Part shown: positions 18,111-26,980 of the stretch, piece by piece
Numbering within the stretch: the stretch's first letter is position 1
Layout of the letters: the number at the start of each line of letters is the position of its first letter
Source of the DNA: Candidatus Omnitrophota bacterium
GTDB taxonomy: Bacteria; Omnitrophota; Gorgyraeia; Gygaellales; Profunditerraquicolaceae
Direction of reading: 5' to 3'
Length of the DNA stretch: 64,000 nt
Assembly (NCBI GenBank): GCA_049517335.1
Contig: JBEKSD010000001.1
Location: 92,776-156,775 of the forward strand
Translations under genes and position numbers: made by a program
Notes under the pieces: model-generated
What the model was told of the DNA's origin: nothing
The model's input: the letters and a program-made list of their open reading frames with translations, nothing else
Database searches by the model: none

Positions 18111-18207
18111 GGATTAATTATTTCTAATTTTGCTTCGGGTTTGTTCGCGCACAAAATTTTAATGTGTGCTTCACAAACCTTGCGCAAAATTATTTCAATA
18201 GCTGAAT

Positions 18208-25302: not shown

Positions 25303-25632
25303 ATGAAAACCATAGCTTTATTGACCATATCCAATGTCTTTATGACATTTGCTTGGTACGGTCATTTGAAGTTTAAGAATTCACCCCTATGGATTGTAGT
25401 TTTAGTAAGCTGGGGAATCGCGCTTTTTGAGTATTGTTTTCAGGTGCCGGCAAACCGCATCGGCCACTACCGTTATTCCGCAGCCCAGCTTAAGACCATT
25501 CAGGAAGTTATTACGCTGGTAGTTTTCAGCGTCTTTTCAATATTATACCTCAAGGAAGAATTCCGCTGGAACTACGCGGTTGGTTTCTTATGTATCTTAG
25601 CGGCAGTATTTTTTATCTTTAAAAAGTGGTAA
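25303..25632 (+). CDS. DMT-superfamily small membrane protein (DUF486-like)
   Basis: 109 aa with about three TM segments and a FEYCFQVPANRIG motif. Confidence 0.55.
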   Translation: MKTIALLTISNVFMTFAWYGHLKFKNSPLWIVVLVSWGIALFEYCFQVPANRIGHYRYSAAQLKTIQEVITLVVFSVFSILYLKEEFRWNYAVGFLCILAAVFFIFKKW

Positions 25633-25850
25633 ATTTTTGCGGGTCCTGTCGAGTCGCATTTTCGCAGGATTCGTTTAGATTTTTCCTCCGCTTTGCGGGG
25701 TCGGCAAAGACTTTTCGTATTTTTGGCGGCTGCGGAACTCGCGCCTCGAGCTCTGGCTCTCGGCGCCCAAACATCCTCACCGTTCCGGTGTTGTCGCTTC
25801 GCTCCACCGGGATTCCCAAAAATACTCAAGTTCTTTGCCTAAGAATCTAA
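25633..25850. other. GC-rich non-coding block, candidate structured RNA of unassigned family
   Basis: About 220 nt visibly richer in G+C than the flanks, with many short hairpins (CCGCTTTGCGG, CACCGTTCCGGTG, GGCGCC/GAGCTC palindromes). The only ORFs are Arg-rich reads of GC-rich sequence. I could not recognise a tRNA, tmRNA, SRP or RNase P signature. Confidence 0.25.
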
Positions 25851-25930
25851 ATTCGCTCGAAATCACGACAGATTCATTAAGGATATTTGTTCTGAATTAG
25901 GTATCGTGTCTCTGGAATTATGTTGGAAAC

Positions 25931-25952
25931 CTATAAACTACACGGCAGATAG
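25931..25952 (+). repeat. 22-bp direct repeat, left copy (CTATAAACTACACGGCAGATAG)
   Basis: 19/22 identical to the copy at 26446-26467. It ends 6 bp before the ATG of the PIN-like ORF. Confidence 0.6.
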
Positions 25953-25958
25953 ACTATT

Positions 25959-26445
25959 ATGGCTTTAAAAATAACATTAGATACAAATTGTCTTTTTGAT
26001 TATTTTGAACGTAATCCTCAATATATTGAAAAGTTAATAGAGTTTCAGAACGAGGGTAAAATAGAACTTGCAATTACAACAAGAGTTCAAGCTGACACTT
26101 TCGGTAAAAGAGAAGATAGCCCTATTTGGCAGAAAAATAAAATCCTTTCCCTGTATTACAATTGGGAGTATTGGAAGGCACGATGTTTCTTATTATGATA
26201 GTGGTGATGTTTATGCAGGCGACGATGATAATTTGCAGGATTTAATTCAATCTTGCATAGGGAATGACGTAAAAAGAATCATCGATGTCGACCATCTGAT
26301 TGCTCACATTATTAATAAGAGAGATATTTTTGTAACGAGCGATACTGACGATTTTATAAAACACAGAGATTGTTTGGAGCAAAAGTGTAGTATCAAGATT
26401 ATGACTCCAGAAGAATGTATCAATTTTCTGAAAAGTCAAACATAG
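25959..26445 (+). pseudogene. PIN-like nuclease gene split by a frameshift
   Basis: Frame A (25959..26198) begins MALKITLDTNCLFDYF..ELAITT, which gives PIN N-terminal Asp and Glu positions. Frame B (to 26445) carries DVDHLIAHIINKRDIFVTSDTDDF, a PIN C-terminal acidic motif. The frames can be joined by a 1-nt slip in the A-run GCAGAAAAATAAAAT near 26130-26145. The islet is locally AT-rich. Confidence 0.55.
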
Positions 26446-26467
26446 CTATAAACTATACGGCACGTAG
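26446..26467 (+). repeat. 22-bp direct repeat, right copy (CTATAAACTATACGGCACGTAG)
   Basis: Begins 1 bp after the stop of the PIN-like ORF. It pairs with the 25931-25952 copy. Confidence 0.6.
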
Positions 26468-26515
26468 CCCAAAGGTTAGTGGTTATTTTATAAAATTTTA
26501 GGAGTTTTGGCTTGA

Positions 26516-26538
26516 GCGTGCGTTAAAATTTTTGGCAC
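26516..26538. promoter_or_regulatory. palindromic operator-like site GCGTGCgttAAAATTTTTgGCAC (site 1)
   Basis: Dyad-symmetric GTGC..AAAATTTTT..GCAC. A second near-identical copy lies about 112 bp downstream. Confidence 0.35.
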
Positions 26539-26632
26539 AGCTATTAAAACACAGTCTGCAAGGATTTACGACGAGCTAAGGCGTGAGAATGCGATAGTCT
26601 AATCGAAAGCGAGGAGTAAACCGCGGCAGACG

Positions 26633-26653
26633 GCAAAAATTTTTAGCACGCGG
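26633..26653. promoter_or_regulatory. operator-like site GCAAAAATTTTTaGCACGCgg (site 2), 35 bp upstream of the prepilin-like ORF
   Basis: Shares the AAAATTTTT(G/A)GCAC core with site 1, and the GCGTGC/GCACGC ends are mutually inverted. It sits where a promoter for the 26688 ORF would lie. Confidence 0.35.
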
Positions 26654-26687
26654 AAGACAAAACGCCTAAAAGGAAAATAAGACAAAG

Positions 26688-26933
26688 ATGAAGAAGATTA
26701 AAACTGGTTTTATGCTTATAGAGTTCTTGTTGGTTCTGGTGATAATTATGTTTGTTGTATTCAAGGTATGGGATATTTATTTTAAGAAGCCGGCCTTGAA
26801 CAAAGAGACCCAAAAAGTTATGACTGAGCAAGGCGTAGACACTACAAATTATAAAACAATTAGTGATAGCATCAAAAATAAGGTAGAGGATATTCAAAGT
26901 CAGCATATTAATGAGCTGATGAAAATACAATAG
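26688..26933 (+). CDS. prepilin-like small protein (type IV pilin N-terminal cleavage/methylation motif)
   Basis: MKKIKTG|FMLIEFLLVLVIIMFVV matches the class III signal G/F-x-x-x-E followed by a hydrophobic helix. Only 81 aa. No other pilus genes are adjacent. Confidence 0.5.
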   Translation: MKKIKTGFMLIEFLLVLVIIMFVVFKVWDIYFKKPALNKETQKVMTEQGVDTTNYKTISDSIKNKVEDIQSQHINELMKIQ

Positions 26934-26980
26934 AGCGGAAATACCCTTGCAGCTTTAGATATTTATGGTAAAATTTTGCA

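Follow-up and report, generated by a model that had tools for sequence, protein, structure and literature searches.

The closest described systems are small repeats known from several other bacterial groups. The ERIC or IRU elements of the Enterobacteriaceae are imperfect palindromes of approx. 127 bp and are classed as MITEs (PMC3184786, table 1), and the BOX elements of Streptococcus pneumoniae are modular repeats composed of boxA, boxB and boxC (PMC3184786). REPINs and BIMEs are inverted REP doublets which are mobilised by RAYT transposases (PMC3116915, PMC2817692). Correia elements (CREE/NEMIS) have been described in Neisseria, and pairs of MITEs straddle integrons in Acinetobacter and Enterobacter (PMC3184786). 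For the Omnitrophota, no report of repeat elements was found in the literature searched. In the attC sites of integrons one strand folds better than the other. The repeat compared with these systems here, family B, has one full copy in the window, by which we mean the whole 64-kb stretch of DNA that was analysed.

The first-pass annotation of the window had drawn attention to two palindromic operator-like sites, GCGTGCGTTAAAATTTTTGGCAC at 26516-26538 (site 1) and GCAAAAATTTTTAGCACGCGG at 26633-26653 (site 2), which were read either as operators for a dimeric regulator or as the arms of a long hairpin or MITE-like element beside a gene islet. Both strings are present and non-random. The 14-mer AAAATTTTTRGCAC which is common to the two sites starts at 26525 and 26636, 111 nt apart, and is found in the 64-kb window twice exactly and once with one mismatch. 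These three occurrences at up to one mismatch compare with 0.48 expected and were reached in none of 100 shuffles. The sites are not, however, two equal palindromes as had been proposed, because the full GTGC..AAAATTTTT..GCAC pattern is fitted by site 1 only. In the family alignment the GCAC of site 1 is the start of an optional loop insertion (CACAGCTATTAA...), present in some family members only, and does not correspond to the GCAC of site 2. Since AAAATTTT is identical to its own reverse complement, the arms can be read as direct and as inverted repeats. The complementarity which had been noticed between the sites is real but extends much further than was claimed: an inverted-repeat search returned arms of 37 nt, 78% complementary and 102 nt apart, the 5' arm at 26496-26532 (plus strand) including site 1 and the 3' arm at 26635-26671 (plus strand) including most of site 2.

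The arms belong to one imperfect palindrome of approx. 180 nt at 26491-26679, a full copy of family B on the plus strand as judged by covariance model, nhmmer and fold. It scored 147.8 bits with covariance model R1 (E 4.5e-33), and the nhmmer family profile spans 26494-26670. The fold check suggested for the hairpin alternative returned a single long interrupted hairpin with a minimum free energy of -56.1 kcal/mol (z -4.45) on the plus strand, which is the better-folding one, vs -46.6 kcal/mol (z -4.14) on the minus strand. The hairpin or MITE-like alternative was essentially right. The invariant family core, here GCAAGGATTTACG ... GAGTAAACCGCGGC around a variable apical hairpin, lies at 26567-26628 (plus strand; invariant columns of 66-70 aligned copies). 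Rfam 15, whose families include 6S, SRP, riboswitches, HEARO and the IS605-orfB motifs, gave no match at gathering thresholds over the 64-kb window and no match overlapping 26491-26679 even at E values up to 10. The related repeat which had been reported before queH is also real and is an internally deleted copy of family B (mini-B) at 18123-18195 on the minus strand, recognised by a weak covariance-model match (20.4 bits) and by comparison with the consensus. It has kept both outer arms and lost the whole centre between the two AAAATTTT cores, a shape which fits a putative deletion between these self-complementary cores. The window holds these two B copies and one element of a second family, A.

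Using nhmmer and then the covariance model, five further full-length copies were found in 4 of 80 related loci (L008, with two, and L016, L035 and L055), giving six covariance-model matches of 130-180 bits in Omnitrophota genomes, window copy included; the same copies scored just 20-36 bits on the reverse strand. A metagenome scan with the core pattern returned 120 stretches, and in the first 80 of these loci approx. 70 full-length copies were confirmed by the covariance model. With the family profile, 107 copies were counted over 1.6 Mb of contigs from Omnitrophota genomes and metagenomes. The copy number per genome, extrapolated from contigs rather than taken from whole-genome scans, is approximately one per 30-150 kb. 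The named source genomes are all Candidatus Omnitrophota or uncultured Planctomycetales/Planctomycetia, and the metagenome contigs carried no individual taxon assignment. Relatives collected by MTHFR (70-89% identity) were nearly all Candidatus Omnitrophota MAGs or MAGs labelled uncultured Planctomycetales/Planctomycetia. With regard to phage association, the IMG/VR viral collection yielded three pattern matches, none of them confirmed by the covariance model.

Family B elements are 170-190 nt long and contain no ORF. The 5' half of the consensus reads outer stem - GAGCGUGC - AUUAG - AAAAUUUUYGGCA - optional 11-14 nt insertion - AAGUGCGC - AA - GGAUUUACG, followed in the centre by tandem G-A or Watson-Crick pairs and then by the variable apical hairpin, and the 3' half reads CGUAAACC - GUA - GCGCAC - GGCRAAAAUUUU - C - AGCACGCG - outer stem. 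The ends of the family are (AT)ATTTTGCGG / TTTTAGGG ... CCCTAAAA / CCGCAAAATAT. It is the centre and not the termini which is most conserved: a core (GCAAGGAUUUACG ... CGUAAACCGUAGC) is invariant, as are an asymmetric internal loop (CAA / GUAG) and the helix beside it; core conservation is partly inflated because the copies were gathered by a core-motif pattern. Tandem G-A mismatches interchange with Watson-Crick pairs, and the apical loops often look GNRA-like (CGUAAG, CGAAAG) as judged by eye on the alignments, not by a count. In the outer stem the sequence is variable and the pairing conserved. The two sites of the first-pass annotation are the two strands of helix 2, AAAAUUUUYGGC / GGCRAAAAUUUU.

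Conservation of pairing was measured on 66 non-redundant copies, aligned by MAFFT without reference to any structure. Standard pairs occupied 95.5% of the cells in the stems, vs 34-45% (maximum 44.5%) in controls where the partner was slid by 1-3 columns. Double changes were observed in 20 of 32 pairs (UA 34 / AU 29; UA 32 / CG 31; GC 35 / CG 27; CG 30 / UA 27 are examples) and amounted to 262 cells compared with 81±14 in shuffles, a value which none of 500 shuffles attained. Conservation at the level of pairing extends across genomes whose MTHFR proteins are just 70-89% identical. One-sided changes were confined to 17 cells, and wobbles were rare (approx. 1% of cells), GU and UG together (22) being about as common as AC and CA (18), from which we conclude that the pairing is held at the Watson-Crick level, as a DNA palindrome would be. 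With RNA parameters the nominal strand was the better-folding one in 68 of 71 copies, by a mean of 7.4 kcal/mol, and with DNA parameters in 70 of 71; because it is equally strong with DNA parameters, this asymmetry cannot separate RNA from single-stranded DNA. Unpaired positions on the nominal strand were 46% A and 26% G (73% purine). Taken as sequence evidence, the Watson-Crick-only covariation favours pairing which is probably maintained in DNA, and the purine-rich conserved loops and strand preference favour a putative functional single strand, either RNA or single-stranded DNA.

Iterative searches of the flanks of B copies identified two partner families, A (approx. 195-250 nt, 10 full copies) and C (approx. 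170 nt, 30 full copies), and the 5' arm of family A, TTTTTGCGGGTCCTGTCGAGTC, matches the 5' ends of family C. The window copy of A (25633-25885, listed on the plus strand) lies directly after the DMT_6 stop codon, where it forms the left border of the islet, and was delimited by an nhmmer profile match at 25682-25878 (E 7.8e-47) and by its fold (z -5.7). It includes, at 25851-25880, a terminus of approx. 30 nt which we call t (AATGAATCTGNCG). This terminus resembles a terminal inverted repeat, is common to A and B, and occurred 40 times vs 6 in shuffles; an inverted t pair encloses A (220-232 nt) or B (245-264 nt). The whole B element is itself an inverted repeat, to which some A and B copies add the outer AATGAATCTGNCG...CGNCAGATTCATT, and the window copy of B is without these outer termini. 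In the DNA searched there was no autonomous element bounded by t termini and no t'..t pair longer than 264 nt.

The arrangement of the partners was strictly polar. Opposite to B, the nominal strand folded better in none of 10 A copies and in 1 of 29 C copies, and DNA parameters agreed. Homologues of family A were found in nine other loci, always upstream of B where both occur. Among 92 B copies with enough flanking sequence, 24 had a partner less than 100 nt from the 5' end, and for a further 11 it lay at 100-1500 nt, with 0.4-2 kb between the two hairpins; in 35 of 36 cases the partner (A, C or an inverted B) was on the 5' side and head-to-head, and one partner was on the 3' side. From this layout and the strand preference it follows that the recurring unit is two hairpins with their better-folding strands outward and with genes, or no genes, between them. 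The window A is likewise head-to-head with B, because it folds better on the minus strand.

The t, A/C and B modules resemble BOX in their fixed order and orientation, stable predicted structure, intergenic position and lack of a self-encoded mobilising enzyme; unlike the short tandem boxes of BOX they are long head-to-head hairpins which can enclose protein-coding cargo. As in REPINs, the working unit of A, B and C appears to be an inverted palindrome doublet of which one strand folds better, which would suit recognition as single-stranded DNA. REP sequences, however, are 20-40 nt long and present in hundreds of copies per genome, whereas the halves described here are 170-250 nt, hold genes between them, and were associated with no identified RAYT-like gene.

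In simple ORF calls around the copies, B was located between co-directional genes in 44 of 49 cases, antisense to them in 28 and sense in 16. The 3' end is often 0-10 nt from a stop codon, the neighbouring genes are unrelated, and the element is found in either orientation. Most copies are solitary within core operons, for example those flanking cysS in L143. When two copies occur in one genome they are 77-85% identical and in four of five cases fall in the 94th-98th percentile of all pairs; as such within-genome copies are old (approx. 80% identity) there is no sign of recent transposition. No consistent or clean target-site duplication was found at 28 inspected unit borders, where the AT-rich palindromic ends (ATAT / TA) are indistinguishable from a TA duplication. 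The copies examined had neither a transposase nor an integrase beside them, and the search yielded no transposase or recombinase whose ends match those of the repeats.

The genes around the window element are FTCD_C, FolD, DMT_6, MTHFR and acetyl-CoA synthase. In most of 80 relatives the FolD stop codon abuts the MTHFR start and B is absent, and in some (L007, L019) DMT_6 lies between these genes and ends 4-6 nt before the MTHFR ATG; the window therefore holds an inserted block of approx. 1.34 kb. Approximately 10 of the 80 relatives have A, B or C elements in the FolD-MTHFR gap, differing in family and orientation (L008, L030, L033, L035, L036, L038, L049 and L055, in addition to the window), and some of these junctions hold a gene between two repeats, as in L049 where two C elements face each other across a 213-aa ORF (C > ORF < C). 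Judging from these comparisons, the FolD-MTHFR junction, which is part of the Wood-Ljungdahl gene cluster, is a hot spot for insertions and not a site of conserved regulation. Presence and absence of elements were observed between L030 (A without B) and L035 (A plus B), between L024 and L008, and between L212 and the window. Exact filled and empty junctions were not obtained, the L035/L030 and L008/L024 pairs being too diverged, and when the junctions of all elements were compared by BLAST no other pair was returned. The 1.34-kb block, which extends from the DMT_6 stop to the MTHFR start, has a 14-nt direct repeat (TGGTAAATTTTTGC / TGGTAAAATTTTGC) at its two edges (25627-25640 and 26966-26979), which may be a target duplication or may have arisen by chance in AT-rich DNA.

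The contigs L085, L113 and L139, and also L126 and L127, come from related samples; on one side of a B copy their flanks are 100% identical, and on the other side the DNA is unrelated. Recombination, or chimeric assembly, of MAGs thus appears to be brought about by these repeats. An inversion between L126 and L127 was considered and rejected, as the copies sit at opposite ends of a homologous gene.

The interiors of the head-to-head pairs are low in GC (0.30-0.32 vs 0.40-0.42). Their genes are unrelated ORFans, genes whose products match PIN or HEPN weakly, and one gene for an ORF6N protein. The Pfam matches of the cargo to PIN and HEPN were all below threshold, one ORF6N domain was found, and PADLOC returned no match for nine cargo proteins. 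In the window the cargo is a low-GC, PIN-like gene of the 150-160 aa type at 25959-26445 (plus strand), a pseudogene split by frameshift over two overlapping reading frames, with a weak PIN_12 match (E 0.0028) and with intact homologues (P0002-P0005). As A and B bracket this decayed gene, B is the right border of an islet between DMT_6/FolD and MTHFR. One intact homologue (L210, 69% nucleotide identity) also lies between two head-to-head B copies (L210/L211), in a different neighbourhood containing VapBC, BrnT/CopG and Lnt; other homologues of the cargo are without hairpins. Two explanations offer themselves, movement of the entire unit or repeated capture of genes of this type by hairpin pairs. 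The intact 150-160 aa homologues were observed in toxin-antitoxin-rich islets (L206, L210/L211) and, in L207/L208, with a serine recombinase and a LexA-like repressor. A 22-nt direct repeat (25931-25952 and 26446-26467, plus strand; direct-repeat search, 19 of 22 positions or 86% identical) exactly brackets the frameshifted gene. It was found in no other locus searched and is unique to the source genome, and may be the scar of an integration event or else a long duplication of the target.

We consider it probable (approx. 0.6) that B is a MITE/ERIC-like interspersed hairpin repeat bordering an accessory-gene cassette, a reading with which action at either the DNA or the RNA level is compatible. 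Small size, lack of coding capacity, palindromic form, dispersal over intergenic sites, polymorphism, occurrence in both orientations, modularity, deleted derivatives and position at breakpoints are traits of such repeats and are best explained in this way. B resembles ERIC in being a full-length imperfect palindrome at intergenic and mostly co-transcribed positions in either orientation, with a moderate number of old, diverged copies, conservation across wide taxa, and deleted or expanded variants. It differs from ERIC in length (approx. 180 nt, up to 260 nt with the t arms), in the invariant asymmetric core, in the polar head-to-head pairing with a second family, and in the cargo between partners; no TA-flanked termini were seen, the phylum is another one, and there is no sequence similarity. 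With Correia elements and MITE pairs B has in common that small non-coding inverted-repeat elements are located at gene borders and are co-transcribed into stem-loops, and, with MITE pairs, that two elements can flank and possibly move the intervening genes. The 26-bp terminal inverted repeats, TA duplication, promoters and IHF sites of Correia elements were not found here, and pair orientation is strictly polar. The invariant centre, the age of the copies, the lack of a detected target duplication or cognate transposase, and the strict polarity of units which can carry genes set B apart from typical MITEs. In its conserved asymmetric loops, G-A exchange, apparent GNRA apices, purine-rich unpaired positions and strand preference, B resembles a functional single-stranded molecule more closely than it does repeat DNA of a passive kind.

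As MITE/ERIC-like repeats, the hairpins would be DNA elements comparable to MITE, ERIC and BOX, either mobile without being autonomous or prone to recombination, and an enzyme provided in trans may recognise them when folded. Alternatively, they may be fragile palindromes at which foreign genes are captured. Read-through from the host operon would convert them to long stem-loops, which may buffer the cassette from its neighbours. The Omnitrophota are an uncultured phylum. The family is large, and it shows a strict polarity and a link to foreign genes which are not seen in ordinary MITEs. Its members mark assembly breakpoints and islet borders in Omnitrophota MAGs and should be masked before regulatory-motif searches of Omnitrophota genomes.

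It is possible, with perhaps one chance in four, that a new class of structured RNA is represented by B and, on the other strand, by A and C. This would be a small RNA gene present in many copies, or else an RNA module which affects processing, stability or insulation in cis, and the active strand would be the one reading outward from the cassette interior. Such an RNA would be in keeping with the strong covariation, the invariant CAA / GUAG loop, the tandem G-A/Watson-Crick swaps and GNRA-like apices (the latter judged by eye), the A- and G-rich unpaired positions and the better folding of the nominal strand, and in the head-to-head layout read-through from either side would always end on a 'sense' hairpin. 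Against this reading, GU wobbles are no commoner than A-C mismatches, one-sided changes are far fewer than double ones, and the strand asymmetry is equal with DNA parameters. Two thirds of the copies run antisense to the genes around them, neither a promoter nor a terminator signal was detected, and there was no Rfam match even at E 10. If the hairpins are RNAs, they would add a widespread structured RNA class.

A more novel proposal, of rather low probability, is that an undescribed Omnitrophota system for cassette mobilisation has its ends or recombination sites in the head-to-head pairs, in which B is joined by A, C or another B; as a variant, these hairpins may equally be a new structured RNA class. 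In such a system the outward-reading single strand of each end would be recognised when folded. Genes of the PIN-like, HEPN-like and ORFan types would be shuttled into operon junctions such as FolD-MTHFR, and the solitary hairpins would be footprints of the system. If this holds, it would be a new route by which small-genome bacteria gain toxin or defence genes inside essential operons.

That the hairpins are attC-like sites, folded as single-stranded DNA for a site-specific recombinase which inserts and excises small promoterless genes, we regard as unlikely. B has in common with attC an imperfect palindrome whose structure is more conserved than its stem sequence, conserved unpaired bases, a variable apex and a strand-specific fold, and its association with short, low-GC ORFans and toxin-type genes, including weak PIN/HEPN genes, is similar. 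The same cargo family lies between hairpins in two contexts, and the 22-nt and 14-nt direct repeats, which bracket the cargo and the entire block, are of the kind expected after site-specific integration. However, attC sites are 57-141 bp long and form tandem arrays of a single orientation, beside an integron integrase or as clusters, whereas the hairpins are 170-190 nt (up to approx. 260 nt with t ends), are paired head-to-head and are mostly solitary within core operons. On inspection of the sequence the RYYYAAC / GTTRRRY core sites (R''/R') were absent from the ends, and no integrase was seen beside the copies examined.

The other and preferred reading of the first-pass annotation, in which a dimeric regulator binds two operators approx. 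111 bp apart, loops the DNA and controls the promoter of an 81-aa ORF, is now very improbable. This ORF (26688-26933, plus strand; ORF list and homologues) is prepilin-like, with a G|FMLIE motif, and is located just outside B. AAAATTTTT is palindromic and AT-rich, the distance of approx. 35 bp given from the end of site 2 to the ATG at 26688 was measured as 35 nt, and a second homologue of the ORF (L195) also adjoins a B copy, all of which would suit an operator. Against it, the sites covary as the two pairing partners of one helix over 66 copies (UA 34 / AU 29, UA 32 / CG 31), and only site 1 has the full palindrome pattern. The promoter which had been placed at site 2 was not borne out, as no sigma-70-like promoter and no terminator were predicted in or beside the hairpin (26450-26690), and neither was the regulon, the motif being confined to copies of the repeat and the 107 copies having unrelated neighbouring genes. 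L212 keeps the ORF without the sites, and more distant ORF homologues (L213, L214) have no B copy nearby. The hairpin is not a conserved control element of the 81-aa ORF. With more than 100 copies, often head-to-head around small foreign genes, the repeat borders a gene islet and is not a switch for the neighbouring gene.

Four further candidates were set aside: a 6S-RNA-like rod (no central bubble, multi-copy, no Rfam match), a THF or C1 riboswitch suggested by the folate neighbourhood (both orientations, unrelated neighbouring genes), a riboswitch or other RNA regulating the downstream gene in cis (28 copies are antisense and 16 sense to flanking genes of no consistent class, and many begin 0-10 nt after a stop codon), and an invertible promoter (no promoter found, and whole units, not just centres, differ in orientation).

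The 81-aa ORF belongs to the block which is missing from relatives where DMT_6 abuts MTHFR. L212, a close relative, is 86% identical in nucleotide sequence to the window from 26665 onwards, across the 81-aa ORF, MTHFR and ACS, and has no hairpin; an unrelated gene reaches to within 7 nt of the ORF ATG and leaves no free upstream DNA. The homology starts at L212:263 / window 26665 with CCTAAAA, the last 7 nt of B. In this comparison the B end is a rearrangement breakpoint with microhomology. In L195 (3193-3698) a homologue of the ORF is flanked by LeuS and ComEA/ComEC and is immediately downstream from a B copy which has the opposite orientation. The ORF, small and pilin-like, is perhaps a mobile or accessory gene in its own right.
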